A stretch of DNA of 57,614 nucleotides from an uncultured Candidatus Saccharibacteria bacterium (GCA_964520645.1 CAZFND010000004.1:1-57614); one strand, 5' to 3'; positions 2,446 to 53,797 are shown, numbered from the stretch's first letter. Numbers and translations: made by a program. Notes: generated by a model from the letters alone, not told the origin.

Positions 2446-3798
2446 ATGAATTTTTTTAAAGGGAAAAAAGTAACTGTTATGGGCTTAGGGCTTCTTGGTC
2501 GTGGCTTGGGAGATGTAATCTTTCTGTCGCAGGAAGGTGCCGAGCTCATTGTGACTGATCTAAAAACAAAAGAACAACTAAGTTCAAGTCTCAAATCTTT
2601 ACAAGAAACGTTGGGTGATAATTTCAATAAAATCACGTTTGTTTTAGGTGAGCATAGATTAGAAGATTTTAAAGATAGAGATTTTATTTTAAAAGCTGCA
2701 GGAGTTCCTTTTGATTCTATCTACATAGCTGAAGCTCGCAAAAATAATATCCCAATAGAGATGGGAGCATCACTTTTTGCAAAATTAAGTGGAACAACAA
2801 TTATTGGTATTACGGGTACTCGTGGTAAAACTACGGTTACTCATTTATTGCATGATGTAATTACAGAAGCGGTAAAACGAGGAGAAATTAAATATAAAAA
2901 AGTTTTTCTTGGAGGAAATATACGAGGAGTTTCTACGCTTCAGTTTTTGAGAGAAGCAGGTAAAGAGGATGTTGCGGTACTTGAACTTGATTCATGGCAG
3001 ATGCAGGGGTTTGAAGAAGCACATATGAGTCCGCATATTTCAGTTTTCACGACATTTTTTAAAGATCATATGAATTATTATAAGAATGATCTCGATCATT
3101 ATCTTGATGATAAGGCTGCGATATTTAAATATCAAAATAACAATGATGTGCTTGTGGTAGGAAATCAGGCTACAGAAATGATTACAAAAAAATATCCTGA
3201 AATCCATAGCAAGGTGATAGTTGCAAGTGAAGAGAACATTCCCTCAGATTGGATACTTAAAATGCCAGGAATACATAATAGATACAATGCCGGCCTTGTA
3301 AAAGCAGCTGCTGAAGCACTTACTATTTCAGACTCTACAATAAAAGGGGTAATAGAGAATTTTGTGGGTGTTCCTGGTAGATTAGAATTTTTATGCGAAA
3401 TGAATGGTGTAAAGATTTATAATGACACAACAGCGACGACTCCTGATGCTACATTGGTTGCACTCAAAGCATTAGAAAAAAATATTATTTTGATTATGGG
3501 AGGAGCTGACAAACAGCTTGATATGACTGATCTTATACAAGCATTACCAGCACATACTAAAAGAGTGATTTTGTTAGATGGAACGGGGAGTGCTCGAATA
3601 GAATCTGAGCTTGTTAAAAATAAAGGAATTAATCTAGATAAAGCAGCTAGTCTTAAAGAAGCTGTTGAGAAAGCTGTAATTGCCGCAAAAGAAGGTGACA
3701 CTATTGTGTTAAGTCCGGCATTCGCTTCCTTTGGTATGTTCAAAAATGAATATGATCGGGGAGACCAGTTTAATGCTCTAGTAAAGAATCTTAAGTAA
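2446..3798 (+). CDS. murD: UDP-N-acetylmuramoyl-L-alanine--D-glutamate ligase
   Basis: Motifs VMGLGLLGRG, GITGTRGKTTV, NDTTATTPDAT. I place the start at ATG 2446, with GGGGG 3 nt upstream, rather than the track's GTG 2407. Confidence 0.92.
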   Translation: MNFFKGKKVTVMGLGLLGRGLGDVIFLSQEGAELIVTDLKTKEQLSSSLKSLQETLGDNFNKITFVLGEHRLEDFKDRDFILKAAGVPFDSIYIAEARKNNIPIEMGASLFAKLSGTTIIGITGTRGKTTVTHLLHDVITEAVKRGEIKYKKVFLGGNIRGVSTLQFLREAGKEDVAVLELDSWQMQGFEEAHMSPHISVFTTFFKDHMNYYKNDLDHYLDDKAAIFKYQNNNDVLVVGNQATEMITKKYPEIHSKVIVASEENIPSDWILKMPGIHNRYNAGLVKAAAEALTISDSTIKGVIENFVGVPGRLEFLCEMNGVKIYNDTTATTPDATLVALKALEKNIILIMGGADKQLDMTDLIQALPAHTKRVILLDGTGSARIESELVKNKGINLDKAASLKEAVEKAVIAAKEGDTIVLSPAFASFGMFKNEYDRGDQFNALVKNLK

Positions 3799-3800
3799 GA

Positions 3801-3806
3801 TATAAT
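3801..3806 (+). promoter_or_regulatory. -10 box (TATAAT) exactly 6 nt before the murC ATG; candidate leaderless start
   Basis: TATAAT at 3801-3806 and ATG at 3813, so the predicted +1 coincides with the A of ATG. No SD. Confidence 0.35.
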
Positions 3807-3812
3807 TAAAAA

Positions 3813-5129
3813 ATGGACGTAGATTTTAATAAAATTAAGGCACTACATTTTATCGGTATTGGCGGTGTGGGTATTTCTGCGCTCGCGCGATTGATGCTTA
3901 CTCAGGGTAAAGAAATTTCTGGTACAAATGATTCAGAAAGTCACGAAACACTGGATGGATTGAGGAAACAAAATGTAAAAATTTCTCTCGATACAAAACC
4001 GGAACATCTCCCTCAGGCTGATATGTATGTATATAGTGATGCGTGGCTTACCAATAATCCTGCAATTTTAGACGCAGCAAAATCTAAAGGTGTGCCTGTT
4101 CTTTCATATGCTGAAGCATTAGGAGTGGTATCAAAAAACTATAAAGTAATTGCAGTAGCTGGAGCTCATGGAAAGACAACAACAACAGCCATGGTGGCTG
4201 ATGTCCTTGAGGATGCAGGCTTTGACCCTACCGTTGTTGTAGGATCCCTTCGGTCAAAAACAAAAAGCAATTTTAGTGATGGAAAAGGTGAATATCTTGT
4301 TGTAGAAGCTGATGAGTATATGCGCCACTTCTTGAATTTTAATCCGTATATTCTTGTTATTTTAAATGTAGATGATGATCATCTAGACTATTACAAAGAC
4401 ATTGAGGATATAAAAGATGCTTTTGCAGCTCTTGTAAAAAAGACTGATCCGGATGGATTTATTATTTGTGATAAAGAATTGCCTCACATAGAAGATGTAG
4501 TGAGACATGCCAAAGCTACAGTAATAGATTATGAATTGTTTGGAGATTATAATTTGAATCTCAAAGTTCCCGGTCAGCACAATCTTAGTAATGCAGCCGC
4601 AGTACTCGCTGTAGCAGACGCTCTCAAGATTCCTCGAGCACAAGCCAAGAAGTCTCTCGAAGCTTTTTCTGGTACATGGCGTCGATTTGAATACAAAGGC
4701 AAAACGCAAAAAGGAGCAGCCGTATATGATGACTATGGTCATCATCCGACTGAAGTACAGGTGACACTACATGGTGCGCGGGAACTTTTTCCAGACAAAA
4801 AAATAGTAGTAGTTTTCCAACCACATCTCTATAGTAGAACAAAACAGCATGTGAAGAAATTTGGTTCTGCATTTGATCATGTTGATGATGTTGTTATTGC
4901 TCCCATTTTTGCGGCTCGGGAAGCACATGATCCCACTATCTCATCAGAAATGGTGGCAACAGAAATTTTTAAGCATAAAGCTGAACGGTTCCCACTTGGG
5001 GGACAAGTGCAAGCATTGGATTCATTTGAAAAAATAGAAACATATCTACGTCAGTTTGGAAGCGATACTATTATTATCACAATGGGGGCAGGGGATATTT
5101 ATAAAATTGCTGAGAAGTTAGTACAATAG
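3813..5129 (+). CDS. murC: UDP-N-acetylmuramate--L-alanine ligase
   Basis: Motifs HFIGIGGVGISALARLM, AGAHGKTTTTAM, DDYGHHPTE. Confidence 0.95.
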   Translation: MDVDFNKIKALHFIGIGGVGISALARLMLTQGKEISGTNDSESHETLDGLRKQNVKISLDTKPEHLPQADMYVYSDAWLTNNPAILDAAKSKGVPVLSYAEALGVVSKNYKVIAVAGAHGKTTTTAMVADVLEDAGFDPTVVVGSLRSKTKSNFSDGKGEYLVVEADEYMRHFLNFNPYILVILNVDDDHLDYYKDIEDIKDAFAALVKKTDPDGFIICDKELPHIEDVVRHAKATVIDYELFGDYNLNLKVPGQHNLSNAAAVLAVADALKIPRAQAKKSLEAFSGTWRRFEYKGKTQKGAAVYDDYGHHPTEVQVTLHGARELFPDKKIVVVFQPHLYSRTKQHVKKFGSAFDHVDDVVIAPIFAAREAHDPTISSEMVATEIFKHKAERFPLGGQVQALDSFEKIETYLRQFGSDTIIITMGAGDIYKIAEKLVQ

Positions 5130-5130
5130 T

Positions 5131-5730
5131 ATGGACCAGGCAATTTACGGATTATCCTATGTCGAAAATTTGTCCTATTTGGGGATTTTCTTAACTGTTG
5201 CATTTAGTGGTTACGCACTTCCTATTCCAGAAGAAATTGTTCTCATTTTAGGAGGATATTTGGCCGCTCGAGGAATTGTGAGCCTTCCTCTTGTTATGCT
5301 TATTAGTATTTTTGCAGGTACTACAGGAGATGGATTGATTTTTTATTTAAGTGGTCATGGAAGCCGATTTACCCAAAAGTATCATGAAAAAGTGGAGAAG
5401 ACCCACTTGGGCTGGTATCTCCGTCACATGAAGGAACATAGCTGGACAACGGTGTTTTTTTCACGATTTATTGTAGGAATGCGTTTTTTTAATCCTCTTG
5501 TTGCTGGACTCATGAATATTCAATGGAAGACATTTATTTCAGCGACATTTGTATCAACACTTATTTACACCCCTGTAGTTGTGCTCATCGGTTATTATTC
5601 TAATCATCAAATTTATAGAATTATACATCTTGCACGTTCAGTGCGGCATTTTATTTTGATAGGATTTACTATTTTGTCGATAGTACTTATTATTATATTT
5701 ATTAGAAATTTAATACAAAAGAAAACATAG
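5131..5730 (+). CDS. DedA/VTT-family membrane protein
   Basis: 199 aa. SGYALPIPEEIVLILGGYLAARG-type DedA signature and multiple TM helices. Starts 1 nt after the murC stop. Confidence 0.8.
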   Translation: MDQAIYGLSYVENLSYLGIFLTVAFSGYALPIPEEIVLILGGYLAARGIVSLPLVMLISIFAGTTGDGLIFYLSGHGSRFTQKYHEKVEKTHLGWYLRHMKEHSWTTVFFSRFIVGMRFFNPLVAGLMNIQWKTFISATFVSTLIYTPVVVLIGYYSNHQIYRIIHLARSVRHFILIGFTILSIVLIIIFIRNLIQKKT

Positions 5731-7268: not shown

Positions 7269-9182
7269 ATGAATGGAGATCCTATTACATATTTTGCCGA
7301 AACTGACGCTCGCAGCAAGCGAGTACCTTTTGGCATAAAAGAATCTGATCGTTCTCGTCATATGTATATCATTGGCAAGACGGGTATGGGAAAGTCCACC
7401 CTTCTTGAAAACATGGCTGTGCAGGATATCAAAAACGGAGCTGGCATGGCCTTTATTGATCCTCACGGAAAGACAGCCGATCTTCTTCTTGATTATGTTC
7501 CTCAAGAACGTATAAAAGATGTGATTTATTTTGCTCCTTTTGATTTGGATTATCCAATCTCATTTAACGTGATGGAAGATGTGGGTCATGAGCGACGTCA
7601 CCTTGTTGCCAACGGACTCATGAGTGCATTCAAGAAAATTTGGGTGGATGCATGGAGTGCACGTATGGAATATATCTTGAATAATATTCTTCTCTCACTG
7701 CTTGAATTTCCTGATGCTACTTTGGTGGGAGTTAACCGAATGCTTGTTGATAAAGAATATCGAAAAATTGTTGTAGATAATATTACTGATCCTTCTGTTA
7801 AGGCGTTTTGGACTGAAGAATTTGCAAAATATGGTGATCGATATATGCAGGAAGCTGGTGCTGCAATCCAAAACAAAATTGGACAATTTATTTCCAATCC
7901 TCTTGTGCGAAATATTATTGGTCAGCCAAAGTCTACATTTGATATTCGTTCGATTATGGATGAGAAGAAGATTCTCATTATCAACCTCTCAAAAGGCCGG
8001 GTGGGTGAAGCCAATGCCAATTTGCTTGGAAGTATGCTCATTACCAAAATTTATTTGGCAGCGATGTCACGTGCAGATGCATCTCCAGGACTTCTCAAAA
8101 AGCTTCCAAGTTTTAATCTCTATGTAGACGAATTTCAATCATTTGCCAATGAGTCTTTTGCAGATATTCTCTCAGAAGCTCGAAAATATAAGTTGAGTTT
8201 GGTTATTGCACACCAGTATATAGAACAGATGAGTGATGAAGTGCGTGCTGCTGTGTTTGGTAACGTGGGAACAATGATCACTTTCCGTATAGGTGCACTT
8301 GATGCAGAAATATTTGAAAAGGAATTTTCACCTGCCTTCAATCAAGAAGATATGGTAAATCTTGGGTTTGCTCAGATTTATCTTAAACTCATGATAGATG
8401 GAGTAACATCTCAGCCTTTCTCGGGAGTGACCCTTCCTCCTATTGAGAAACCTCTTGTATCATTTAAAGAAGATATTATCCGATTCTCACGATCAACATA
8501 CTCTAATCCTCGAGCTGAGGTGGAAGAAGCTATTAGAAAATGGCATGAACCAAAGCACGATCCAAAACAGGATCAAAAACGTCTTGATGACAGACCACGT
8601 CAATCCCACTATGATAGAAATGATAGGGGTGACCGAAACGATAGAAGAGATTTGCCTTCACGAGAAGAGAAAAAAGCAACTCCAGCCCCTGATCTTAAAA
8701 ATATTTTGCGTTCTATAGTGGGGAATAACGCTAATACTCCTAAACCTCAGCCTCAATCTCAAGCCGGTTCTTCGATGAAGGTTCCTTTAAGGCAAGATGT
8801 TCAAAAACCTGAGCCTCAGCCACTGCGTGTTGTACCTCAAAAAGAAGCTCAAGAAAATGAATTAAGGAAAGCTATTTCTCTTAATTATAGTCGTAACGTA
8901 GAACCCATAGAAAAGAAAAAGACTGTTATAAAAAGAGAAAAAGGACCAAGCCAACAAAATTTGGCTGCATTACGTGATGCACTTAACTCAGTTATTAAAG
9001 AAAGAGAAGCAGAAATACTTTCTAATCAACAAAAAATTATTTCTGTATCTACAAAATCAGTACAAGCCCCAAAGCCTCAAATTCCAATAGTTGAAGCTTC
9101 ACTACCTAAAGTAGAACAAGCTAAGCCTGCTCGTGAAGTACCAGAAGATGTTTTGCGAAAAATCCTAGATACTGAATCATGA
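7269..9182 (+). CDS. Soluble VirD4/TraD-like (T4SS coupling-protein-type) P-loop ATPase with a long disordered tail
   Basis: Walker A IIGKTGMGKSTLLENM, Walker B-like FNLYVDEFQSF, and SEARKYKLSLVIAHQYIEQM. No N-terminal TM helices. The last ~200 aa are K/P/Q/R/E/D-rich low complexity (DRNDRGDRNDRRD). Confidence 0.78.
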   Translation: MNGDPITYFAETDARSKRVPFGIKESDRSRHMYIIGKTGMGKSTLLENMAVQDIKNGAGMAFIDPHGKTADLLLDYVPQERIKDVIYFAPFDLDYPISFNVMEDVGHERRHLVANGLMSAFKKIWVDAWSARMEYILNNILLSLLEFPDATLVGVNRMLVDKEYRKIVVDNITDPSVKAFWTEEFAKYGDRYMQEAGAAIQNKIGQFISNPLVRNIIGQPKSTFDIRSIMDEKKILIINLSKGRVGEANANLLGSMLITKIYLAAMSRADASPGLLKKLPSFNLYVDEFQSFANESFADILSEARKYKLSLVIAHQYIEQMSDEVRAAVFGNVGTMITFRIGALDAEIFEKEFSPAFNQEDMVNLGFAQIYLKLMIDGVTSQPFSGVTLPPIEKPLVSFKEDIIRFSRSTYSNPRAEVEEAIRKWHEPKHDPKQDQKRLDDRPRQSHYDRNDRGDRNDRRDLPSREEKKATPAPDLKNILRSIVGNNANTPKPQPQSQAGSSMKVPLRQDVQKPEPQPLRVVPQKEAQENELRKAISLNYSRNVEPIEKKKTVIKREKGPSQQNLAALRDALNSVIKEREAEILSNQQKIISVSTKSVQAPKPQIPIVEASLPKVEQAKPAREVPEDVLRKILDTES

Positions 9183-18872: not shown

Positions 18873-19952
18873 ATGTATAGCACTAAGCTATTTTTAGCAC
18901 CACCTATTTCGGGGTTACATGAGCTTCATCTCATTGCTTCTTATTTTGGTAGAGATGATGGAAGCAATACTCTTTTTACATCAAAAAATCCTGCAAACTT
19001 TGCATATAAAAATTTCTCTTTTACTGAGAATATACTAGAAGCCAACTATATTCTCATCCCTAACAGCATAAAAAAGCTTGATCAAAACATACAAAATTAT
19101 TTAGACTCAGTCAGAAGCTTAGCGAAGAGACATAATAAAAAAGTGATAGTGTTTATTGGAGGAGACTTATCTCACGATGTATTTATTGATGACATGATTG
19201 TATTTAAGGGGTCGCAATATAAGTACATGATGCGATCTAATGAAATAATCGTACCACCGTTTGCTGAGGATTTGCTTGAGGGAGATCAATTAACTATCAG
19301 AAAAAAATCGAAAAACACCAACCAAAAACCTGTAGTGGGATTTTGTGGTTGGGCAGGATTTGCTAATGTTCCTCAATTAATAAAATATCATGCAAGAAAC
19401 CTACTTATTAACTTCCAAAAAATATTCCGCCCTCATCTTGAAGTTCACAAGAAGGGTTTGTATTTTAGAAGAAAAGCGATACAGATTTTACAAAAGTCTC
19501 AATTAGTTTCTACCAATTTTATTATTAGAAATTCTTTTTCTGCTAATACAAAAACAATTTCTCTTGATCCTGTTCAAGCAAGAAAAGAATATAAAGAAAA
19601 TATTATTAGTTCAGACTTTGTACTCACGCCAAAGGGGGATGCCAATTTCTCTGTCAGATTTTTTGAGGTGCTTACGCTCGGCAGAATTCCTATTCTTATA
19701 GATACTGAGACAGTATTACCGTTAGAAAATGTTATAGATTATTCTGAATTTATGTTAAAAGTGAATTATAGAGACTTGAAAAAGTTACCAGAGATTATTT
19801 CAGAGTTTTATGCTAATCTAACGCCAGATCAATTCAGTATCATGCAGCATAAAGCACGGGAGGCTTATGAACTCTATTTACGCTATGATAGATTCTTTAG
19901 TTATGTGTTTTCTGGCCCCGTTGAGCGGTTATTACGAGAGATAAGAAAATAA
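18873..19952 (+). CDS. Exostosin (GT47)-like glycosyltransferase
   Basis: The C-terminal SDFVLTPKGDANFSVRFFEVLTLGRIPILID matches the remembered exostosin-domain signature. Confidence 0.6.
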   Translation: MYSTKLFLAPPISGLHELHLIASYFGRDDGSNTLFTSKNPANFAYKNFSFTENILEANYILIPNSIKKLDQNIQNYLDSVRSLAKRHNKKVIVFIGGDLSHDVFIDDMIVFKGSQYKYMMRSNEIIVPPFAEDLLEGDQLTIRKKSKNTNQKPVVGFCGWAGFANVPQLIKYHARNLLINFQKIFRPHLEVHKKGLYFRRKAIQILQKSQLVSTNFIIRNSFSANTKTISLDPVQARKEYKENIISSDFVLTPKGDANFSVRFFEVLTLGRIPILIDTETVLPLENVIDYSEFMLKVNYRDLKKLPEIISEFYANLTPDQFSIMQHKAREAYELYLRYDRFFSYVFSGPVERLLREIRK

Positions 19953-19962
19953 ATCAAAATAT

Positions 19963-21540
19963 ATGCATAAAATAATTAATTCTATATATACTTTTATAAA
20001 AAATAATTGGCTGCCTCTTGCAATTATCAGTGTGGGGGTGATGATTCAGCTATTTTTCTTAACCCGATCTTTTAACTTTCTTCTAACCAATATTATTCCT
20101 GATGATGCATTTTATTACTTTCAAATTGCTCGCAATATTGTCACAGGTCATGGTTCAACGTTTGATGGTATTCATGCAACAAACGGCTATCATCCTCTTT
20201 GGCTTCTTATTCTTTTGCCCATATTCAAATTCTTCTCTGTAGGGGGTACATTAGATTTTACTCCGGTGTATCTAACTCTTTCTCTAGAAATTATATGCAA
20301 TACAATAGCTGGTGTAGTAATGCTTGTTATCCTATCCAGATATACACATAAGCAGTGGCTCAAAGCGTTTGCTCTTATGCTGTGGTTCCTCAATCCATTT
20401 ATGATCTATGAAATGATGAATGGTCTTGAAACTGGACTCTCACTTATGTTAGTGGCACTGTTTTTCTTGTGTACTCTTAATGTGCAAAAAAATGCATCAA
20501 GAAAAAATATAATTATTGCATCCATTGTTGGGGGATTAATGGTGCTTGCAAGAATAGATAATATCTTTTTCTTAGCGTTTTTCTATCTCTGGCTCTGGTC
20601 AAAAGATTTTTCATTTAATCATTTCAAAAAAGTTTTTGGTTTTGGACTGATCTCTCTTTTAGTCATTTCACCATTCTTTCTCTGGAACATTTTTGGTTTT
20701 CATATGCTACTTACTTCGGCATCCGAGGGTAATACACGGGTAAGTCATCAGCTTATTGTCCAAGATCATGGTACCAGCCTGTTCCAGACTGCAAAAGCTG
20801 CGGTGTATAGCACACATTATCAAATTGTTGAGTTGCTGACGCGCTCAGGCGTCCCCGCAGGAATTCTTATACTTATTGGAATGGGATTGGGATATTGGCT
20901 TATTAAAAAGCAGGGAACTATTGAAACACGAGTAGCATATCTAAACGTAGAATTATTTTTGTTTGCAGGATTTCTCACAAATTTTCTTGCAAATAGTGCT
21001 ATTAGATGGGTGGGGCGTCCATGGTACTTCGTAGCATTTACGATCTTTGTAATGATATTTGTTGTGTGGCTATTTGAGCAATTTTTCGATGCTCTTACTT
21101 ATAAAAAGATTTTTATAAGTGTTGGAGTAGCATTTTTACTTTTTTCATTCTATGTGAATTGGAGTAAAAATCTTAAGAATCAATATGTACTCCAGAGTCA
21201 GATGTTTGAAGCAGCTCACTGGATGAATACTCATTTACCACAAGATGCGGTTATTGGGTCATTTAATACCGGTATAGAGGGGTATTTCTCTCGCAATAGA
21301 GTGATTAATCTTGATGGCTTAGTAAACAATAGTATTGGCGAAGCCTTCAAGCAGAAAAAGATTTGGTCATATATTAAAGCTCAAAAGATTGGCTACATTA
21401 GTGACTTCGATATTTATCTTTCTTATAGATATAAAAGTTTTATAGACAATACCGATGTATTTAATTCACTTACATTAGTACATCAAATGACTGAAGATGA
21501 AAATGCTTCACGAGTACTCAAGATCTATAAAGTAAAATAG
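19963..21540 (+). CDS. Polytopic membrane protein, GT-C-like glycosyltransferase or polymerase candidate
   Basis: 525 aa with about 12 TM helices. An early loop DDAFYYFQIARNIVTGHGSTFDG...TNGYHPLW carries acidic residues at the GT-C position, followed by a soluble C-terminal domain. Confidence 0.55.
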   Translation: MHKIINSIYTFIKNNWLPLAIISVGVMIQLFFLTRSFNFLLTNIIPDDAFYYFQIARNIVTGHGSTFDGIHATNGYHPLWLLILLPIFKFFSVGGTLDFTPVYLTLSLEIICNTIAGVVMLVILSRYTHKQWLKAFALMLWFLNPFMIYEMMNGLETGLSLMLVALFFLCTLNVQKNASRKNIIIASIVGGLMVLARIDNIFFLAFFYLWLWSKDFSFNHFKKVFGFGLISLLVISPFFLWNIFGFHMLLTSASEGNTRVSHQLIVQDHGTSLFQTAKAAVYSTHYQIVELLTRSGVPAGILILIGMGLGYWLIKKQGTIETRVAYLNVELFLFAGFLTNFLANSAIRWVGRPWYFVAFTIFVMIFVVWLFEQFFDALTYKKIFISVGVAFLLFSFYVNWSKNLKNQYVLQSQMFEAAHWMNTHLPQDAVIGSFNTGIEGYFSRNRVINLDGLVNNSIGEAFKQKKIWSYIKAQKIGYISDFDIYLSYRYKSFIDNTDVFNSLTLVHQMTEDENASRVLKIYKVK

Positions 21541-22791
21541 TTAAATTCTTTTAAGTAAAAAGAGAGAAACGGCGAGATTAATAAATCGCGCTATGATTCG
21601 TGCGATAATGACTCCTACTAGACCAAGGGTATATGCAAACCCAATAAGCAATCCTATCTGTGCAATAGAAGCGGTAAGGCTAAAGTAATACAGTTCTTTT
21701 TTTGCCATTTGAGCATTGAGTGCTGTTTGAGGCAATGAAAAAAGACTTGGAATTAAAGTAAGAGCATATATTTGTGAATACCATACATACTGATGATATT
21801 TGGGGAATAGAATGCTGAACAAAAAAGGAGAGGCAAATATATAGATAAGAGTAATCGGAATCAATGCAATACTTAATAGAATAGTCCATTTGAAGACATG
21901 ATTTTTTAGATCATCTTTTTCTTTTACTGAATACTTTGGCATCGCAAGTGTAGAGAGTGACCGGGTCATAAATGTCTTAGCTTGATCTACCGGTGCTGTA
22001 GCAACAGAATAAATGGCCAAAGCACTGGCACCTACGACTTGAAATACTAGAATTTTATCTATAAGTGTCGCAACTGTACTGATCACATTTATGAAACTCA
22101 GATGGATCCCATTTTTGATTGCTTCAGGATCTTGAGAAGCTTGTGGGGAGATTTTTGATGCTAAATACCAGGTGAAAAATCCTCTAAATCCTGTCCAGAC
22201 AATGAAGTAGGTGAGAAGCATGCAATACACATTTTGAGTAAGTACTGCTACTCCTGCTAGCGCAAGGGTTGCTACTACTTGGCTGAGTGCGTATGAAAGT
22301 GTAGATTCTTTAAATTGCTTTTTCCCACTAAAGATAGCGTCATAAAGATTAAAAGAATCCATGAACGGAGTGAAGAGTGCAACAACAATAAAGCTCCAAC
22401 CTAATAGCCAATTTCCATGTGCTGCATAATAGATGGCAGTAATAATAGAGGCTAGCCCGCCAAGCATTCCAAAGCGAATACGAGTTTTAAGGGCAGGGAT
22501 GAAACTACCATCATTTCCCCGAGCGATTGCTTGTGTAATAGATGTTCCCATGCCATTCAAGTTGGCAATCGCAAAAAATCCTGCAACCGAAAGTACGTAT
22601 TTAAATACCCCAAGTGTCTGAGGTAATAGGAAGTTGGCGTATACAATAGAAAGTACAAATGAAGTAGTAGCAAGTACTACTTGGCTCACTCCTACCCAGA
22701 AGCTGCCTTTAGCGATATATACAAGATCTGCTTTTATATAAGCGCCTATTTTATTCAAAAAAGTATGAATATATTGGTTTAACTGAGCCAT
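21541..22791 (-). CDS. Wzx-type oligosaccharide flippase (MOP/PST family)
   Basis: 416 aa with 12-14 TM helices and polysaccharide-biosynthesis-protein-like topology, set inside a glycan cluster. Confidence 0.75.
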   Translation of the reverse strand: MAQLNQYIHTFLNKIGAYIKADLVYIAKGSFWVGVSQVVLATTSFVLSIVYANFLLPQTLGVFKYVLSVAGFFAIANLNGMGTSITQAIARGNDGSFIPALKTRIRFGMLGGLASIITAIYYAAHGNWLLGWSFIVVALFTPFMDSFNLYDAIFSGKKQFKESTLSYALSQVVATLALAGVAVLTQNVYCMLLTYFIVWTGFRGFFTWYLASKISPQASQDPEAIKNGIHLSFINVISTVATLIDKILVFQVVGASALAIYSVATAPVDQAKTFMTRSLSTLAMPKYSVKEKDDLKNHVFKWTILLSIALIPITLIYIFASPFLFSILFPKYHQYVWYSQIYALTLIPSLFSLPQTALNAQMAKKELYYFSLTASIAQIGLLIGFAYTLGLVGVIIARIIARFINLAVSLFLLKRI

Positions 22792-22837: not shown

Positions 22838-23197
22838 ATGGCAATATTATTTCTCATTCTTGCATTTATTATGAATGGAAGTGCAAGTATTTTGCTCAAG
22901 TTGCATGCTGAACGAGGCTTCAGTACAAAAAATATACTAAGCATTAGCATTATTACTCAAAATATTTATTTCTTTTTAGCGCTTTTCTTGTTTGCATGTA
23001 ATCTAATTTTTTATACGTTAGCGCTTACCAAGCTTCCATTATCAACTGCATATCCAATAATGGTAGTCATGAGTTTTCTTATTGTGAACTCTTTTTCGTT
23101 TTTTTATTTTAAAGAGCACATCACATTGCCTCAAGTAATAGGCTACATATGTATCGTAGTTGGAATTACTCTCGTTATCGGATTTTCTAAAATTTAA
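22838..23197 (+). CDS. 4-TM mini-transporter (SMR/ArnE-F/GtrA-like lipid-linked sugar flippase candidate)
   Basis: 119 aa with four evenly spaced TM helices. Neighbours are a GT2 and a polytopic transferase. Confidence 0.6.
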   Translation: MAILFLILAFIMNGSASILLKLHAERGFSTKNILSISIITQNIYFFLALFLFACNLIFYTLALTKLPLSTAYPIMVVMSFLIVNSFSFFYFKEHITLPQVIGYICIVVGITLVIGFSKI

Positions 23198-24294
23198 GAA
23201 ACTTTTTCCAATCTCTCAAATGTCTTGATCCAGACATACATACCATCAAAGTATTTTTTGAGAAATGCTTGATGCTCAGGAGTAATTTTTTGCTTCTCTA
23301 ATTTTTTAGTGAGGCCATCTGCTATTTCTCGAAGACATCCTAAGTAATCTTTCTTTGTTAATTTGATGCTTTTAAGCATATCTGTGAATACCGTAGTAAG
23401 CATCATTCCATTATCTTCTTTCGCAAGATCTTTCCAGAAGTTGTGTGGATTTCGATCTTGATTAACTATTGGAGTTCCAAAAGAAATATAGTGATCTTTG
23501 TAATCAGCAATTTTCTTGATTACATAGGCAGCCCAGATATCATCGTATCTTCCAATGTAAGGACTCAAGAAATATGCAGGAATAACTTCTCGGGCGATAG
23601 ATGTGTTTTGTGAATTGAAAGGGGACCAGGTGTCTTTTGCCAATGCAAAGCTACTCTTTCTCAAATACTTTGTCGCTGTAATAGGATCGTTCTGATAATA
23701 AAGTCGTGTAAGAGCATCAATATCAGGTTCTCCAAGCCAGAATCCTGCGTTCACGACTATCTTCACATTACTTGTCTTTGATTTTTTATTCTCTTTTAAG
23801 AATCGTACTTCTGGTGGATATCCGCGGTGATAGAAGGATCGTCCTTTTTTCTCTTTGAGATAATCACACACATTGAGCCATCCTGTACTTGAAGAAATAA
23901 CTTCCATCTTTTTCTCAAGACCAACAGTATGGTGCTTTACAAAATCACTTGATAAGAAGAAGTTGTCATCATCAATGGTGATAATAAAATCAACATTTTT
24001 TTCATAAGCAAGAAGCATTCCAATATTTCTTCGCTGAATAGAATTGAATACAAGATGCTCACCAAGTTCTGGAAATCTTTTCAAGTATTCTACTTGATCA
24101 TCAACGTCGAGATATTCTAATTCAACATTATATTTCTTTTGGAGCTTGAGACAGTAGGGCTTGGCTTCTGGTGGAGTCTTTTTGTCACCGATAATAATGA
24201 AAATACAGTCATGCTTATACTGTTTTACATTTTTAATATAATTTTCGAGTAATTTAGGAACATTAATAGTCGTTGTAACAATTGCTGATTTCAT
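23194..24294 (-). CDS. RGP/GT75-family protein (reversibly glycosylated polypeptide / UDP-L-arabinopyranose-mutase-like)
   Basis: IVTTTINVPKLLENY, IITIDDDNFF, FYHRGYPPEVR, NAGFWLGEPDIDALT and IGRYDDIWAAYV run collinear with the plant RGP motifs I remember (TIDDDCFV, VRGYPFS, HGLWLNIPDYDAPT, IGRYDDMWAGW). Confidence 0.7.
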   Translation of the reverse strand: MKSAIVTTTINVPKLLENYIKNVKQYKHDCIFIIIGDKKTPPEAKPYCLKLQKKYNVELEYLDVDDQVEYLKRFPELGEHLVFNSIQRRNIGMLLAYEKNVDFIITIDDDNFFLSSDFVKHHTVGLEKKMEVISSSTGWLNVCDYLKEKKGRSFYHRGYPPEVRFLKENKKSKTSNVKIVVNAGFWLGEPDIDALTRLYYQNDPITATKYLRKSSFALAKDTWSPFNSQNTSIAREVIPAYFLSPYIGRYDDIWAAYVIKKIADYKDHYISFGTPIVNQDRNPHNFWKDLAKEDNGMMLTTVFTDMLKSIKLTKKDYLGCLREIADGLTKKLEKQKITPEHQAFLKKYFDGMYVWIKTFERLEKVS

Positions 24295-24303
24295 GTGTGT
24301 ATA

Positions 24304-25317
24304 TTATTTTAAATTTTTATCTTTCAAACGTTTATGTGCATATTCTAATACTCGAGTCATACCTTTTCTTAAACTAATTTTTGGTTTCCATTTGATCTCT
24401 TTGTTTAAAATAGTAGTGTCTGCATATCGAGACTGCACTCCTACTGGTTTATCAATGAGTCTTTTTATCTCTGCTGTATGGCCTTCTATGTCACAGAAGA
24501 GTGCAATTAATTCATTAAAGCTAGTGAGGGTGCCACTTCCAATGTTAATTCCACGCCCATCTTTTACTTTATCGAGAATAATCATCATTGCATCTACACA
24601 ATCATCAATATGAACAAAGTCGCGGCCTTGTTCACCGGTGCCCCATACCTCTATTGGGCTGTCATGACGTGCCACTCTCAAGGCAATAGAAGGAGTAGGA
24701 TAGGTAAGATCCTGATCTTCACCATATCCAGAGAATGGGCGAACACAAGCAACATGAAGACCATATTTACTATGAGCAAGCCGCGCAAGAAATTCCCCAG
24801 TCAATTTTGACCATCCATAGGTCATATCTGGTTGACCGAGCTTTTCATTAAATTGAATATACTCTTCTTTAAGCGCAAGAGCTTTCTCTTCTGATTGAAG
24901 GTGAATAGGGTAGGCAGCTGATGAAGAAGCATAGAGCAATCTCTCAAGAACACCTTTTGATCGAGTAGCCCATGTAAAGAGCATCGAATCAATTGCAAGA
25001 TCATAGGAGACCATAAGTGGATCTCCATCAATCAAGCTTCTGCCACCAACAATAGAAGCTAAGTGATATACGTCACTAAAAGCTGGGACTTTTAATTTAC
25101 TTTTCTTTTCTATGATATCTGAAAAAAATTGAAGAGCGTTGGCCTGAACAAAAGTTACTTTTTTCATCTCAGCTTTAGTAAGCCATGTATCAGGATGTTT
25201 GCCGGTGAATAAATTATCTACTATCCAGATTTTCTCTCCTTTATCCAAAAGTGCTCGGACTAAATGTCTTCCCACAAAGCCGCAACCGCCAGTAACCAGA
25301 ATAGGTTTATTTTTCAT
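24304..25317 (-). CDS. Extended-SDR NAD-dependent nucleotide-sugar epimerase/dehydratase/decarboxylase
   Basis: VTGGCGFVGRHLV Rossmann motif, catalytic YGWSK, and FVHIDDCV. Confidence 0.88.
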   Translation of the reverse strand: MKNKPILVTGGCGFVGRHLVRALLDKGEKIWIVDNLFTGKHPDTWLTKAEMKKVTFVQANALQFFSDIIEKKSKLKVPAFSDVYHLASIVGGRSLIDGDPLMVSYDLAIDSMLFTWATRSKGVLERLLYASSSAAYPIHLQSEEKALALKEEYIQFNEKLGQPDMTYGWSKLTGEFLARLAHSKYGLHVACVRPFSGYGEDQDLTYPTPSIALRVARHDSPIEVWGTGEQGRDFVHIDDCVDAMMIILDKVKDGRGINIGSGTLTSFNELIALFCDIEGHTAEIKRLIDKPVGVQSRYADTTILNKEIKWKPKISLRKGMTRVLEYAHKRLKDKNLK

Positions 25318-26035
25318 AACGTTTTACAATCTTTTCTTTAGGCATAAATAATACCTTAAGTCCTATCCTAAAGTAAACAAAATTTCTAAAAAATGAATTT
25401 TGAGATTCGCCTTCTTTGCGAGCTGTCCATGAAGATGGAATTTCCTTTACACTATATCCAAGTCGCAAAGGCTTGATGAGCGTTTCAAACAAAAAGGGAT
25501 GACGAAGTTCTTCCCACTGAATACTTTTTACAATTTCTATTTTAAATATTCTATACGCAAAGGTGAGATCTGTAAGTTTTGTTCTGTAAAGCATTCTAAA
25601 GAACAGCTGGAATATTTTATTTAAGATAAATTTAAGAACATTGTAGCCTTCAAAGTGAGCATTTCCAATCCATCTGGAGCATGTCACAATATCTACGTTT
25701 TCATTCTTTATCGTTTTCAAAAGATCTTTTACGGTGTGAGGATCAGTCTCAAGATCAGATGCCATAAGGATTACATAGTCTCCCGTTGCCGCATCAAAGC
25801 CATCGCGAATAGCTCCACCTAAAAAGGGTAGCTTTTGTTCGAGATGCTGTATTGCTTGAGGATACTTTTGTTTGAGACGAGTAATGACGGCTCTACTAGG
25901 CTCTGTTGTATATTTAGGAGAAGTGATAATAAGAAAAACGAATGTTTCATTAGGGTTCTCCCGTACTATAATTTCAATCGTTTGTTCCAGAGAAAATGTT
26001 TCATTTATCACTGGTAGCAGGACAGTTGTTTTCAT
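25307..26035 (-). CDS. GT2 polyprenyl-phosphate glycosyltransferase (DPM1/ArnC/GtrB-like)
   Basis: 242 aa. Motifs LLPVINE, MASDLETDP, CSRW. The stop overlaps the downstream SDR start by 11 nt. Confidence 0.82.
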   Translation of the reverse strand: MKTTVLLPVINETFSLEQTIEIIVRENPNETFVFLIITSPKYTTEPSRAVITRLKQKYPQAIQHLEQKLPFLGGAIRDGFDAATGDYVILMASDLETDPHTVKDLLKTIKNENVDIVTCSRWIGNAHFEGYNVLKFILNKIFQLFFRMLYRTKLTDLTFAYRIFKIEIVKSIQWEELRHPFLFETLIKPLRLGYSVKEIPSSWTARKEGESQNSFFRNFVYFRIGLKVLFMPKEKIVKRYEK

Positions 26036-26092: not shown

Positions 26093-28312
26093 ATGACATT
26101 AAACACTATTCTTCGTAGATGTATTTTACTCGGACTTTTTATTGTTCCATTTATTCCGTTTGTTGTTGCTAATAGTTTGTTTTTCCCATTTATTACAGGA
26201 AAAGCATTTACGTTTAGAATTATTGTAGAAATAATACTTGGTTGTTGGGCAGTGTTAGCACTTACAGATCGTAAGTATATGCCTAAGGGATCTGCATTAC
26301 TTTATGGTTTTGCTGCATTCGTAGCTCTTATTGCACTCTCAGACATCTTTGGAGCAAATCCATTTAAGAGTTTTTGGTCAAACTTCGAGCGAATGGAAGG
26401 TTTAATTACCCTTATCCATCTTTTTGCATACTTTGTTGTTGCTTCAACAGTGCTTTCTACAGAGAAACTTTGGAACTGGTTCTGGACTGCATCAATTGTT
26501 GCTAGTTTAGGAACTACTATTTTTGGTTTCATGCAATTAGCAGGGAAGTTTAAGATCAATCAAGGAGGTGCACGTCTTGATGCTACATTTGGAAATGCTT
26601 CATATCTTGCTATCTATGTTCTATTCCACATATTTATTACTGCTTTCATTCTAGTATCGCCACAACTCTTTTTACTTCTTCCATTCACAGCAAAAAAGGA
26701 TGCAAAGTATTGGAAATGGGGGATTGGGGCAGTAATTATTATTCTTGAGGGTATTATTCTTTACTACACTGCAACTCGAGGTGCATTCTTGGGGTTAATT
26801 GGAGGTGGAATATTAACGTCAATTCTCATTATTGTTTTTGAAAAGAATAATACTCTTGTAAAAAAGATCTCAATGGCGGTGCTTATTGGAGCAGTTGCAG
26901 TTGTAGGAGCATTCTTCTTGTTTAAGAATTCTTCATTTGTTACCAAGAGTCCTGTGCTTTCTCGATACTCATCTATTTCTCTCAACGATCCGACAACAAA
27001 GTCACGATTCTTACTCTGGAATATGGCATACCAAGGATTTAAAGAACGACCGATCTTAGGATGGGGACAAGAAAACTTCAACTTTGTATTTAATAAATAC
27101 TATAGTCCAAAATTGTATGGTCAGGAGCAATGGTTTGATCGAACTCACAATATTATCTTCGATTGGCTTATTGCTGGGGGTATTCTCGGTCTTGGTTCAT
27201 ATTTGTTCTTTTATGCTGCTCTTATCTGGTATATCTGGAAGCGAAGAGAAGGGGTCACAGCATTTTCAGTAGCAGAAAAAAGTATTCTTACTGGTATGCT
27301 TCTTGGATATTTCATTCACAACTTATTTGTGTTCGATAACTTAGTAAGTTATGTGATGTTTATGTCAGTTGCTGCATATGTATATTCGAGAACTGCATTG
27401 TGGAACAAAGAGTACACATCATCAGGATCTGAGAATAGATTTATTGGTCCTGTTGCACTTGCTGTTACTCTTGTTGTTATTTATTTCTTCAATGTGATTC
27501 CAATACAAAGTAATAAGACATTAATTGCTGCAATTACTCCCTATGGAGATGGAAAAGTTGATAAAAATATTGCAGCTTTTAAAGAAGTAATTGCTACTGG
27601 TTCTATTGGCACTGCAGAAGCTCGAGAGCAACTTCTCGGTATGGCTGGACAGTTATTGGATCAACCTCAAACAGCACTCAACGCGCAGAGTAGATCAGAC
27701 TTAATTGCTCTTGCAGGAGATGAAATGAAGAAGCAAATTGCTCAAGTGCCAAATGATGCACGGTTCCAGGTGCTTATGGGATCATTTCTCACGCAGCAGG
27801 CAAAGTATGCAGAGGCATTACCGTATCTTTCTAAAGCCGCAGACCTTTCTCCACAAAAGCAAACTATTCTTTTTGCAAAAGGCATTGCTTACATTGGTAA
27901 TCAAGATTATCCTCGTGCTCTTGAAACATTTAAGAAAGCATATGACCTTGAACCAAAGTATACTGAATCTCTTATCCAGTATGCAGCTGCAGCCCTCTAT
28001 GCAAAAAATGATACTCTTGCACAAGAATTATTAAAAAAGCTAGATCCACAAACAGTAATTCATGATGATAGAATTTTGCGAGCATATTATATAACAGGTC
28101 AAACTAAACCGCTCCTCGCTATTTGGAAAGAACGTCTCGCTCAAAATCCTACAGATCCACAATTACACCTTTCATTAGCGGCAGCATACCTTCTCGCAAA
28201 TGATCGAAAGAATGCAATAGCAGAAATTCAAGCAGTTATTAAGCTCGAGCCTGGGTTTAAAGAACAAGGAGATTTCTACATTAAAGAAATTCAGGCAGGA
28301 CGAAATCCGTAA
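26093..28312 (+). CDS. Wzy_C (O-antigen-ligase/O-OTase-like) polytopic membrane protein with C-terminal TPR repeats
   Basis: 739 aa. Motifs GARLDATFGNASYLAIYVLF, TATRGAFLG, ILGWGQENF, then about 250 aa of TPR-like repeats. Paralog of 43609..46014. Confidence 0.75.
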   Translation: MTLNTILRRCILLGLFIVPFIPFVVANSLFFPFITGKAFTFRIIVEIILGCWAVLALTDRKYMPKGSALLYGFAAFVALIALSDIFGANPFKSFWSNFERMEGLITLIHLFAYFVVASTVLSTEKLWNWFWTASIVASLGTTIFGFMQLAGKFKINQGGARLDATFGNASYLAIYVLFHIFITAFILVSPQLFLLLPFTAKKDAKYWKWGIGAVIIILEGIILYYTATRGAFLGLIGGGILTSILIIVFEKNNTLVKKISMAVLIGAVAVVGAFFLFKNSSFVTKSPVLSRYSSISLNDPTTKSRFLLWNMAYQGFKERPILGWGQENFNFVFNKYYSPKLYGQEQWFDRTHNIIFDWLIAGGILGLGSYLFFYAALIWYIWKRREGVTAFSVAEKSILTGMLLGYFIHNLFVFDNLVSYVMFMSVAAYVYSRTALWNKEYTSSGSENRFIGPVALAVTLVVIYFFNVIPIQSNKTLIAAITPYGDGKVDKNIAAFKEVIATGSIGTAEAREQLLGMAGQLLDQPQTALNAQSRSDLIALAGDEMKKQIAQVPNDARFQVLMGSFLTQQAKYAEALPYLSKAADLSPQKQTILFAKGIAYIGNQDYPRALETFKKAYDLEPKYTESLIQYAAAALYAKNDTLAQELLKKLDPQTVIHDDRILRAYYITGQTKPLLAIWKERLAQNPTDPQLHLSLAAAYLLANDRKNAIAEIQAVIKLEPGFKEQGDFYIKEIQAGRNP

Positions 28313-39433: not shown

Positions 39434-39781
39434 ATGAATATTATTTTAAAACTGTTTGTAAATACACTTGTGATAATGCTCGTAGCATATTTTTTGCCTG
39501 GCTTTTTGGTTCCCAATTTATTTACTGCATTTATTGTCGCATTAGTATTGGGTATTATTAATATTACTCTTAAGCCCATTCTCCTTCTTGTTACATTACC
39601 TATAAACATTCTTACATTAGGATTGTTTACCTTTGTAATCAATGCTCTTATGTTGATGCTTGTTGCTTCTATTGTAAAAGGATTTGAAATTTCTGGTTTC
39701 CCAACAGCATTACTAGCTGCACTTATAATCTCAGTAGTGCACTTCTTTATTTATAGTCTCGATACTCCACGAAAAAATTAA
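39434..39781 (+). CDS. DUF360 / 'phage holin 4_2'-family small membrane protein
   Basis: 115 aa. LVAYFLPGF...LGIINITLKPILLLVTLPINILTLGLFTFVINALML matches the remembered family pattern. Confidence 0.72.
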   Translation: MNIILKLFVNTLVIMLVAYFLPGFLVPNLFTAFIVALVLGIINITLKPILLLVTLPINILTLGLFTFVINALMLMLVASIVKGFEISGFPTALLAALIISVVHFFIYSLDTPRKN

Positions 39782-43138: not shown

Positions 43139-43146
43139 ATTACCAC

Positions 43147-43496
43147 TTTGCATCGGATAATTGCGTCCTAAGAGTAATCGAGGGATGAGGAAAGTCCGAA
43201 CACTTGCCTGCCTTACGGCAGACAGCAGGGTAGCGGGTAACGCCCGTCTGGAGCAATCCACGAGGTGCGAGCAGAGACGTCTTGGTCTGAAAAGACCGGA
43301 CATCCATTTATGGATGAGTCTTCATATAAGCTTAGGGCTTGCTCTGAGCGAAGTCGAAGAGTGAAACGGCTAAATCCTTACTTAAGTGCAAGGCCGTGTC
43401 CCGAGAGTAATCGCGGGAAGAGCTGCTTGACCCTGTGAGCAATTACAGGGCTAGATAAATAATTATCGATAACAGAATTCGGCTTATAGATGCAAA
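43147..43496 (+). ncRNA. rnpB: RNase P RNA, bacterial type A
   Basis: Universal motifs GAGGAAAGTCCG (43187-43198) and ACAGAATTCGGCTTAT. GGGTAACGCCC element present. P1 pairing TTTGCATC (43147-43154) with GATGCAAA (43489-43496). A GC-rich island in an AT-rich context. Confidence 0.9.
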
Positions 43497-43503
43497 GCAT
43501 ATC

Positions 43504-53640: not shown

Positions 53641-53760
53641 ATATTTTAGTGATTTGTATCCCTCTATTCTACTCTAAAGTAGTTTCTATGGGAAGTATAA
53701 GTATAGATACTTCATACATGTGGAAAACTCCTTATTTTTCAACAATAATTTATGTATGCA

Positions 53761-53771
53761 TGTGATATAAT
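53761..53771 (+). promoter_or_regulatory. Extended -10 of TRTGn type (TGTGaTATAAT)
   Basis: Predicted +1 near 53778, 20 nt before ATG 53798. Confidence 0.45.
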
Positions 53772-53797
53772 TTGAGAGTGTATGTAATTAGTATGTA

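Follow-up and report, generated by a model that had tools for sequence, protein, structure and literature searches.

The window analysed here, a stretch of 57,614 nucleotides from an uncultured Candidatus Saccharibacteria bacterium (GCA_964520645.1, CAZFND010000004.1:1-57614), carries on its minus strand an ATG-initiated open reading frame (ORF; positions 23194..24294) for a 366-amino-acid protein of glycosyltransferase family 75 (GT75), the family of the plant reversibly glycosylated polypeptides (RGPs). The gene is the last in a tight minus-strand operon, in the order GT2, short-chain dehydrogenase/reductase (SDR), GT75. The stop codon of the GT2 gene overlaps the start of the SDR gene by 11 nt, and the gap between the SDR and GT75 genes is 9 nt; no terminator-like site was found between the genes, and a promoter and terminator scan of the region 21.4-28.5 kb gave no excess over shuffles. 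All three products are soluble, cytoplasmic enzymes; in the GT75 product, hydropathy analysis predicted no transmembrane segments. The genes of the operon are:

23194..24294, minus strand: predicted GT75 nucleoside diphosphate (NDP)-sugar pyranose/furanose mutase of the bacterial MtdL-like lineage, Ile86/Gln279 subclass (PF03214, MtdL match, AlphaFold2 and Foldseek)

24304..25317, minus strand: extended SDR, nucleotide-sugar epimerase-like (Pfam Epimerase, 121.7 bits), the presumed partner making or modifying the GDP-sugar of the mutase

25307..26035, minus strand: GT2 of the polyprenyl-phosphate glycosyltransferase type (DPM1/DPMS, ArnC, GtrB-like; Pfam Glycos_transf_2), 242 amino acids, no transmembrane domain

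The ORF is exactly the one given in a preliminary description of this DNA, in strand, start codon and length, and the five peptides quoted there (IVTTTINVPKLLENY, IITIDDDNFF, FYHRGYP, NAGFWLGEPDIDALT and IGRYDDIWAAYVIKKI) are all found in the translation. The product matched the Pfam RGP profile PF03214 with 62.8 bits (E=4e-17; gathering cutoff, 23.8), with protein residues 15-362 aligned to positions 16-340 of the 342-position model. STELLO/DUF288 was rejected as the family of this protein, given that the match to PF03385 (18 bits, under the cutoff of 27.8) was partial, spanning about 80 residues (250-331), in contrast to the full-length RGP match. A search of NCBIfam yielded no model for the product. 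R157, within FYHRGYP, aligns with Arg159 of MtdL, the GDP-L-galactopyranose/GDP-L-fucopyranose mutase of the A201A pathway, a residue equated with the autoglycosylated Arg158 of the plant enzyme OsUAM1 (PMC9937993). R157 is invariant in 120 of 120 close homologs and in 130 of 130 representatives of the wider family, and the DDD motif D108-D109-D110, which aligns with D109-D111 of MtdL, is likewise invariant in all 120 homologs. Thus, the protein is confirmed as a GT75/RGP-family member that retains the catalytic arginine and the DDD motif, and not a member of STELLO/DUF288.

The preliminary description had called the protein a plant-type RGP homolog. The family assignment stands, supported by PF03214, R157 and the DDD motif, but the plant-type label does not, because the closest solved relative is MtdL and rice UAM2 is a far weaker match. 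In a phmmer search of the PDB, MtdL was matched over the full length with 152 bits (E=1.8e-43; entries 7XPR, 7YUA, 8HL8 and 7XPU, labelled 'Transglycosylse', all of which are MtdL [PMC9937993]), compared with a partial alignment of 24.7 bits (E=1e-4) for rice UAM2 (8CID, UDP-arabinopyranose mutase), the sole plant entry in the PDB copy searched. A family profile built from 29 relatives widened the gap to 238 bits for MtdL versus 31.7 bits for 8CID, and BLASTP against the MtdL sequence taken from the alignment gave 30% identity over about 353 residues (E=1e-56). The AlphaFold2 model, built on an alignment of relatives (pLDDT 94.2, pTM 0.93), matches the three-domain fold of the MtdL crystal structures, consisting of GT-A, core and C-terminal helical domains. 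When this model was used as the Foldseek query, MtdL came first (TM-score 0.90, root mean square deviation 2.6 A) and rice UAM2 second (TM-score 0.65-0.69), whereas the remaining matches were generic GT-A enzymes with TM-scores below 0.45. From these score gaps, the Foldseek ranking and the nearest-neighbour class analysis given below, the gene product is placed in the bacterial lineage of MtdL and Hyg20, not in the plant lineage; the family membership itself is secure.

The preliminary description had called bacterial members of the family rare and uncharacterised; neither holds. On the latter count, MtdL and Hyg20 are the two biochemically characterised bacterial GT75 enzymes, with crystal structures available for MtdL (PMC9937993). 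As to rarity, a word-indexed search detected at least 5,941 homologs at E<=1e-5, and an exhaustive search of representatives at 50% identity yielded 2,336 clusters at E<=1e-3; with E<=1e-10 as the limit, 1,219 remained, and with E<=1e-30, 356. The named top matches come from Harrisonbacteria, Kaiserbacteria, Doudnabacteria and Parcubacteria, and one of these already bears the label 'arabinopyranose mutase-like protein'. When GTDB species representatives were scanned with a narrow peptide pattern, 131 genomes spread over many phyla were positive, among them members of many classes of Patescibacteria, Acidobacteriota (Bryobacterales, Terriglobia), Nitrospinota, Nitrospirota, Gammaproteobacteria, Chlamydiae, Chloroflexota, Dormiibacterota, Verrucomicrobiota, Desulfovibrionaceae, Rhizobiaceae, a Nocardioides isolate and one archaeon. 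A literature search linking RGP or UAM with bacteria of the candidate phyla radiation (CPR) gave no result.

The functional residues were mapped using the roles established for MtdL by mutagenesis (PMC9937993) and chain 7YUA_A, the numbering of which is that of native MtdL (the DDD motif falls on 109-111); conservation was assessed in the 120 best homologs and the 130 wider-family representatives. The residues equivalent to MtdL R90 (R89 here), the DDD motif D109-D111 (D108-D110), N112 (N111), the nucleophile R159 (R157), D195 (D191), S228 and Q229 (same numbers here), R257 (R249), D260 (D252), R289 (R281) and H292 (H284) are invariant or nearly so. The base-recognition residues T13, I15, D40 and S86 of MtdL correspond to T8, I10, D37 and S85, which are conserved to a similar degree, with Asp40 common to all. 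Three positions differ. K39 takes the place of MtdL Asn42, but lysine is the bacterial majority (116 of 130 representatives) and hence is not distinctive. The other two differences, I86 in place of Asp87 and Q279 in place of the Mn ligand His287, fall on residues that matter in the characterised enzymes: Asp87 of MtdL contacts O4/O6 of the sugar and is essential, with both D87N and D87S abolishing activity, and plant class-2 RGPs that lack the His287 equivalent (AtRGP5, OsUAM2) are inactive (PMC9937993).

These two substitutions count against mutase activity. They would fit a protein in which Ile86 and Gln279 inactivate ring contraction, so that its role would be that of a regulator, a scaffold or a partner that glycosylates itself, as with the class-2 plant RGPs, or else that of a true transferase. 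We regard such a non-mutase role as the least probable of the explanations considered. Across phyla, the remaining catalytic and substrate-binding positions show no or almost no variation, and R249 is kept, whereas in the inactive class-2 plant RGPs the counterpart of Arg257 is lost as well (PMC9937993). The altered positions are themselves conserved: 119 of the 120 close homologs carry Ile or Val at 86, and the same number carry Gln at 279. They also co-vary; among the 130 representatives, 48 combine Ile/Val with Gln and 31 combine Asp with His. After removal of the signature columns, the nearest neighbour belonged to the same class for 57 of 60 Ile/Gln and 28 of 35 Asp/His sequences, and the nearest neighbours of MtdL are of the Asp/His class. 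Such a coherent clade fits re-tuned specificity. Furthermore, a variant with Val86 is encoded directly after GDP-L-fucose synthase, in a pairing of the Hyg20 type, and a natural fusion to the SDR argues for a metabolic enzyme. The amide oxygen of glutamine can serve as a ligand for Mg2+ or Mn2+. Judging from the alignments, Ile86/Gln279 marks a coherent, selected GT75 subclass that has no characterised member and is the new part of the finding. Because all other catalytic residues are kept, unlike in the class-2 plant RGPs, we read the pattern as probable re-tuning of the sugar or metal specificity, not as decay; the mutase activity of the product is inferred by analogy with MtdL.

Conservation of the operon was analysed in 86 GT75-bearing loci, among which a few are duplicates, viewing 8-10 kb on either side of GT75; the search for HddA and HddC took in 88 loci. 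An SDR gene lies within 300 bp of GT75 in 55 of the 86 loci, and in 45 it is an ortholog of the window SDR (320-656 bits) located directly upstream. Orthologs of the window GT2 occur within 3 kb of GT75 in 47 loci. About 31 non-redundant loci have the complete order GT2, SDR, GT75; they belong to five phyla, with Patescibacteria, Nitrospinota, Acidobacteriota and Gammaproteobacteria among the taxa named, and to one archaeon. GT2 is followed by GT75 without the SDR in eight loci (L007, L042, L045, L047, L049, L055, L064, L084). One protein, P0122, is a natural SDR-GT75 fusion, the SDR half of which is 55% identical to the window SDR (E=8e-138). The operon is directly flanked by a PMT_2-type GT-C gene in L004, L005, L007, L008 and L010, and by an ortholog of the 525-amino-acid GT-C protein of the window (U525, described below) in L002, L020, L031, L032, L036, L039 and L085; in L002, L020, L032, L036 and L039 the latter is located directly upstream of GT2. 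Thus, across phyla, GT75 is linked with a GT2 of the polyprenyl-phosphate type, an SDR and GT-C enzymes. Another natural fusion, P0123 (570 amino acids), found in the representative search, joins an RGP domain (1-364) to a methyltransferase domain (Methyltransf_11/23, ~410-520), and methyltransferase genes adjoin GT75 in L002; the fusion suggests O-methylation of the furanose or its precursor in some lineages.

The base-recognition residues and the gene neighbourhoods both bear on the nucleotide and the sugar. The GDP-type residues T8, S85 and D37 are present in the window protein, whereas the plant UDP-type pattern (Pro at MtdL position 13, Asp at positions 42 and 86) is absent, these positions being Thr8, Lys39 and Ser85; none of the 130 representatives has Asp at position 85, and Thr is dominant at position 8. 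Putting the plant residues into MtdL (T13P, S86D) makes its binding of GDP weaker or eliminates it (PMC9937993). A near-threshold GDP-L-fucose synthase (442-454 bits; cutoff 500) is encoded directly before GT75 in L006/L016 and L066, and weaker GDP-L-fucose synthase-like SDRs directly precede it in L034, L035, L077, L081 and L087. Next to the gene for the P0122 fusion, in divergent orientation, lie those for HddA (436 bits) and HddC (217 bits), the latter being heptose-1-phosphate guanylyltransferase. HddA/HddC-like pairs are located within 8 kb of GT75 in L035, L066, L077 and L081 as well; HddA/HddC occur in only 5 of 88 loci. The L066 genes form a row on one strand (HddA-like, NTP-transferase, Gmd-like 4,6-dehydratase, GDP-L-fucose synthase, GT2, GT75) that resembles the logic of GDP-6-deoxyheptose formation in Campylobacter, and the capsule of C. 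jejuni HS:41 is known to contain heptofuranose (PMC12369002). Because HddA/HddC occur in so few loci and are absent from the window, heptose stays a lead. In L089, split transketolase genes (2585-5296; Transketolase_N, Transket_pyr) followed by an SDR lie within a glycan cluster that carries SDR and GT75; these transketolases may extend the chain or supply a higher-carbon sugar precursor.

We therefore consider GDP the probable nucleotide base. The contexts point to a GDP-6-deoxyhexose or a GDP-heptose (derivative) as candidate sugars, with a 4-epimerised hexose as a further candidate. The substrate named in the preliminary description, UDP-arabinopyranose, does not agree with Thr8 and Ser85, which are of the MtdL GDP type, nor with the GDP-L-fucose synthase, HddC and GME-like SDR genes (GME, GDP-mannose 3,5-epimerase) neighbouring GT75 in relatives. 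If the enzyme were a UDP-L-arabinopyranose mutase of the plant type, supplying UDP-L-arabinofuranose for an arabinan on the bacterial surface, this would be compatible with the PF03214 match and with two loci that would fit UDP-sugars and are neutral or unfavourable to GDP: in L007, GT75 lies between an SDR and a UDP-glucose-6-dehydrogenase-like gene (AglM-type, 223 bits), and in L025 a UDP-glucose-6-dehydrogenase-like gene is located nearby, so that a route from UDP-GlcA through UDP-Xyl to UDP-Ara could be encoded. However, neighbours from GDP pathways (GDP-L-fucose synthase, HddC) are found in far more loci than UDP-glucose-6-dehydrogenase, the SDR adjacent to GT75 in the window lacks a UDP-xylose synthase (UXS)-type decarboxylase signature, and the similarity to plant UAM is marginal next to that to MtdL. 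UDP-arabinose is unlikely to be the sugar, and the plant-type reading as a whole is highly improbable.

The SDR retains the Ser-Tyr-Lys triad (YASSSAAYP ... Y167GWSK171). Its family profile matched TmGalE (125 bits), BcUGAepi (119 bits) and GME (108 bits) in the PDB, that is, UDP-sugar 4-epimerases and GME with similar scores, so that no reaction is assignable; the presence of UDP-sugar 4-epimerases among the top matches would suit a UDP-arabinose pathway. No NCBIfam equivalog came near its cutoff, and GDP-L-fucose synthase scored 87 bits against a cutoff of 500. GME itself, the partner expected for an MtdL-like enzyme, was rejected: 3,5-epimerisation requires Cys145 and Lys217 (PMC6678494), and in an alignment to AtGME (2C59) these are replaced by Ala135 and Pro207, both invariant across the SDR family. 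The SDR shares with GME a 'YP..Q..E....LKE' insertion that is absent from TmGalE. The SDR was also rejected as a 4,6-dehydratase or UXS decarboxylase, as the family consensus lacks the TDE and TSE motifs of these enzymes. On the simplest reading of these sequence features, the SDR would be limited to oxido-reduction at C4 (or at an exocyclic position), for example as a 4-epimerase, on a GDP-sugar-type scaffold.

For the GT2, a profile of 21 orthologs matched Pyrococcus DPMS with 88 bits (E=6e-24), ArnC with 68 and GtrB with 43, all other PDB entries scoring 37 bits or less. The top NCBIfam matches, namely AglJ, PgfS, dolichyl-phosphate hexose transferase and ArnC, are polyprenyl-phosphate transferases without exception, all below their cutoffs. 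The catalytic domain is most similar to polyprenyl-phosphate sugar synthases, but with all cutoffs missed the protein is the ortholog of no named enzyme. Two membrane proteins encoded next to the operon in the window complete the set of possible partners:

22838..23197, plus strand: small protein of the DMT/SMR superfamily, ArnE/ArnF-like, 119 amino acids, with about 4 transmembrane segments (weak Pfam EamA and Multi_Drug_Res matches, hydropathy); candidate flippase

19963..21540, plus strand: divergent GT-C fold glycosyltransferase 'U525', 525 amino acids, with about 9-11 transmembrane segments and a C-terminal soluble domain (PMT_2, hhalign, AlphaFold2 and Foldseek)

The gene for the SMR-like protein is convergent with GT75 and overlaps its 3' end by 4 nt, an arrangement that recurs in 7 CPR loci; the best NCBIfam matches of the protein are ArnF (33 bits) and ArnE (23.5 bits), both under the cutoff. 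U525 showed a sub-threshold PMT_2 match (19.4 bits), but its comparison by hhalign with the PMT_2 neighbours of GT75 in other loci gave a probability of 99.1% (E=1e-18), and its homologs are annotated as GT39 or ArnT-like. An acidic motif, IPDDAFYY, is found in the first loop, with D47-D48 of PDDAFYY invariant. The AlphaFold2 model (pLDDT 91) retrieved GT-C enzymes as all of the top 28 Foldseek matches, including STT3/PglB, DPY19, AftB, ArnT (TM-score 0.56/0.55), ALG9, Pmt4 and Emb proteins (EmbA/B among them). U525 is thus a divergent glycosyltransferase of the GT-C fold and is presumed to use a lipid-linked sugar outside the membrane.

Taken together, these observations are best explained, in our view with somewhat more than even confidence, by a soluble, cytoplasmic, metal-dependent GDP-sugar furanose mutase feeding a lipid-phosphate-linked furanose donor for extracytoplasmic glycosylation. 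Under this proposal, the SDR would make or tailor a GDP-pyranose. By analogy with MtdL, the DDD motif (D110) and Gln279, at the position of MtdL His287, would hold the divalent metal that binds the diphosphate, Arg157 would attack the anomeric carbon to give a transient glycosyl-arginine, and the ring would reopen and reclose through O4, with release of the NDP-furanose. The GT2 would then move the furanose onto polyprenyl phosphate, the small ArnE/F-like protein might flip the lipid-linked sugar across the membrane, and the GT-C protein could attach the sugar to a surface glycan or protein from the surrounding Wzx/Wzy-type locus. Each half of this scheme has precedent: the GT2 enzymes GlfT use NDP-furanoses, and the GT-C enzymes Emb/Aft use the lipid-phosphate furanose decaprenylphosphoryl arabinose (DPA). 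For the lipid-carrier route taken by itself, we hold the evidence to be evenly balanced.

The surroundings of the operon bear on this last point, as they comprise a glycan locus:

21541..22791, minus strand: Wzx-type (MOP) polysaccharide flippase (Pfam Polysacc_synt_3, Polysacc_synt), syntenic in L001, L011, L021 and L067

26093..28312, plus strand: Wzy_C/O-antigen-ligase-like membrane protein (Pfam Wzy_C, 74.5 bits) with C-terminal TPR repeats, divergent from the operon and in the equal position in L001, L011, L012, L017, L019, L021 and L085

9179..19952, plus strand: glycan-assembly genes, namely six GT4, three or four methyltransferases and a GT47/exostosin-like gene (Pfam), the probable builders of the acceptor glycan

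With such a set of genes, the same mutase chemistry could serve a different end, namely direct use of the NDP-furanose by cytoplasmic Leloir transferases (the GT2, the GT4s or the GT47-like protein) to build an undecaprenyl-diphosphate repeat unit that Wzx flips and the Wzy_C protein polymerises or ligates, with no lipid-monophosphate donor. UDP-Galf, GDP-L-Galf, GDP-L-Fucf and UDP-Araf are all consumed by Leloir transferases (PMC9937993). The window locus encodes Wzx, Wzy_C and many GT4s. Every known NDP-furanose is consumed by such transferases, GlfT1/2 being GT2 enzymes. However, the only significant solved relatives of this GT2 family are the polyprenyl-phosphate transferases DPMS, ArnC and GtrB, and its NCBIfam neighbours are of the same kind; GT2-(SDR)-GT75 travels with a PMT_2 or U525 GT-C gene in loci without Wzx/Wzy (L002, L004, L005, L008, L010); and in CPR loci the gene for a small ArnE/F-like membrane protein lies right next to GT75. 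We judge direct Leloir use to be unlikely, although it is the main rival of the lipid-carrier route.

In addition to the two active-site substitutions, several findings weigh against the lipid-linked furanose proposal. The precursor genes Gmd, ManC and HddA/C were searched for in the window and are absent, as are HddA/C within 10 kb of GT75 in L089 and L090. Only 23 of 86 loci showed a GT-C gene less than 8 kb away from GT75, which also suits the Leloir alternative, although the sensitivity of detection is limited for divergent membrane proteins. A literature search for undecaprenyl-phosphate furanose donors formed via a mutase returned nothing relevant; no precedent was found for a GT2 that converts an NDP-furanose into a polyprenyl-phosphate furanose, nor a described system joining the two halves of the scheme. 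The GT2 could instead be an ordinary Leloir transferase.

A broader proposal, which we put forward tentatively and regard as rather less probable than its failure, is that GT75 of the Ile/Gln class, GT2 and GT-C constitute an unrecognised, widespread route from GDP-pyranose through GDP-furanose and polyprenyl-phosphate furanose to an external GT-C transferase, its product being the first such donor outside mycobacterial DPA; heptose or 6-deoxyheptose would be the sugar in at least some lineages, and these enzymes would then be the first GDP-heptopyranose mutases. Furanose sugars are not known from mammals, and only a few enzyme types make them; the textbook bacterial route is the flavin-dependent Glf family. 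Here, a GT75 class of predicted mutases, dependent on a metal and an arginine and altered in the active site, extends over Patescibacteria, Acidobacteriota, Nitrospinota, Proteobacteria and others and is tied to a GT2 of the lipid-carrier type and to GT-C transferases. If the pathway is real, it would represent a new branch of bacterial envelope glycobiology, a source of new enzymes for rare GDP-furanoses, and a first way to approach the surface glycans of CPR bacteria, ultrasmall cells that live fixed to the cells of a host. If it is not, what is left is a correct, ordinary annotation of a bacterial GT75 mutase in a polysaccharide locus.

Several other features of the window are of note. Within the glycan-assembly genes, a 359-amino-acid protein (18873-19952, plus strand) contains an Exostosin/GT47 domain (50 bits) with a weak RXYLT1_C match, and its orthologs are syntenic in L001, L036 and L039; Exostosin/GT47 is another family best known from eukaryotes. 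A 637-amino-acid HerA/TraG/VirD4-like ATPase (7269-9182, plus strand; weak DUF87, TrwB_AAD_bind, TraG-D_C and T4SS-DNA_transf matches) is encoded between a DUF4015 glycosyl-hydrolase-like gene and the first GT4 gene of the glycan locus. A mobile-element origin of the locus was rejected on account of its housekeeping flanks (Mur ligases, MurB, SecA, enolase, GatB, MurJ, RNase P RNA), and the synteny kept in a 79%-identical relative also counts against it. The window is assigned to a chromosome of Patescibacteria (Paceibacteria/Parcubacteria, CPR), its SecA being 77-83% identical to proteins that carry these names. A 115-amino-acid Phage_holin_4_2 protein (39434-39781, plus strand; 110 bits) is encoded among housekeeping genes, with no other phage genes nearby. 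The bacterial class A RNase P RNA (43145-43502, plus strand; 112 bits) lies between gatB and the gene for a TPR protein. The pair of genes at 43609-46014 and 46023-47696 (both on the plus strand) includes that for an 801-amino-acid protein with C-terminal TPR repeats and about 650 N-terminal residues without a Pfam match, directly upstream of MurJ; its architecture recalls that of the Wzy_C+TPR protein at 26093-28312. The 1113-amino-acid predicted surface protein encoded at 47712-51053 (plus strand), with VWA, SdrD_B-like and CarboxypepD_reg domains, may act as an adhesin of the episymbiotic CPR cell and could also be an acceptor of surface glycosylation. The region 53700-56700 (about 3 kb) contains only short ORFs (up to 112 amino acids), five of them consecutive on the minus strand, and has a GC content of about 0.41, compared with about 0.35 elsewhere. 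No Rfam family reached its gathering score in this region, and neither its pieces nor the flanking ORFs (51236-53146, 636 amino acids; 56773-57267) had a Pfam match; it could be a degraded gene, a set of fast-evolving small proteins or an unknown RNA. A tRNA-Ile(GAT) gene is located at 785-858.

Among the known systems, Glf/UGM and its relatives (Fcf2 and the C. jejuni HS41.17 CDP-sugar mutase) catalyse the same net reaction, from NDP-pyranose to NDP-furanose, and share the role in bacterial surface glycans. They differ in having an unrelated fold and FADH2 as the nucleophile (PMC12369002), compared with arginine and a metal in GT75. The furanose mutase of C. jejuni HS:41, considered as a characterised relative, was rejected for the same reason, being FADH2-dependent and Glf-type (PMC12369002). 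The plant class-1 RGP/UAM enzymes (OsUAM1, AtRGP1-3) belong to the same CAZy/Pfam family, with the DDD motif, the autoglycosylated arginine and a metal-dependent, flavin-independent ring contraction, but act on UDP-sugars, are Golgi-associated and have no operon context, and the window protein lacks their Pro/Asp residues.

The mycobacterial DPA system with Emb/Aft GT-C enzymes (Corynebacteriales) is linked to the window by AftB and EmbA/B among the structural matches of U525, and besides DPA no lipid-phosphate furanose donor is established for GT-C enzymes. In contrast to the proposed route, DPA originates from PRPP via decaprenyl-phospho-ribose and epimerisation by DprE1/E2, not from an NDP-furanose, and involves no GT75 or DPM1-like GT2. 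The Arn pathway (ArnC, ArnE/F, ArnT) and GtrA/GtrB/GtrC follow the same logic as proposed here, from SDR tailoring to a DPM1-like GT2, a small flippase with four transmembrane segments and a GT-C enzyme. The window GT2, SMR-like protein and GT-C each match Arn/Gtr families best, all below the family cutoffs, and so are analogues or distant relatives, not orthologs; the Arn/Gtr systems carry pyranoses (L-Ara4N, Glc), and a ring-contraction step is unknown there.

The closest comparisons are with the two characterised bacterial enzymes. Hyg20 (Streptomyces hygroscopicus, hygromycin A), a GDP-L-fucopyranose mutase set beside the window gene by description, is likewise a bacterial GT75 GDP-sugar mutase, and its type of pairing, GDP-L-fucose synthase followed by GT75, recurs among the relatives (L006/L016, L034, L035, L066); it differs in serving secondary metabolism instead of an envelope glycan, and the window SDR is not a GDP-L-fucose synthase. 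MtdL (Marinactinospora thermotolerans, A201A; 7XPR, 7XPS, 7XPT, 7XPU, 7YUA, 8HL8) is the nearest in fold, sequence identity, DDD motif and catalytic arginine, and is distinguished from the window protein by Asp87, His287 and Asn42, which are Ile86, Gln279 and Lys39 in the latter. MtdL is encoded in an antibiotic (nucleoside) cluster and feeds a Leloir transferase, whereas the window gene is part of a cell-envelope glycan locus, together with a polyprenyl-phosphate-type GT2, an SDR and a GT-C protein.

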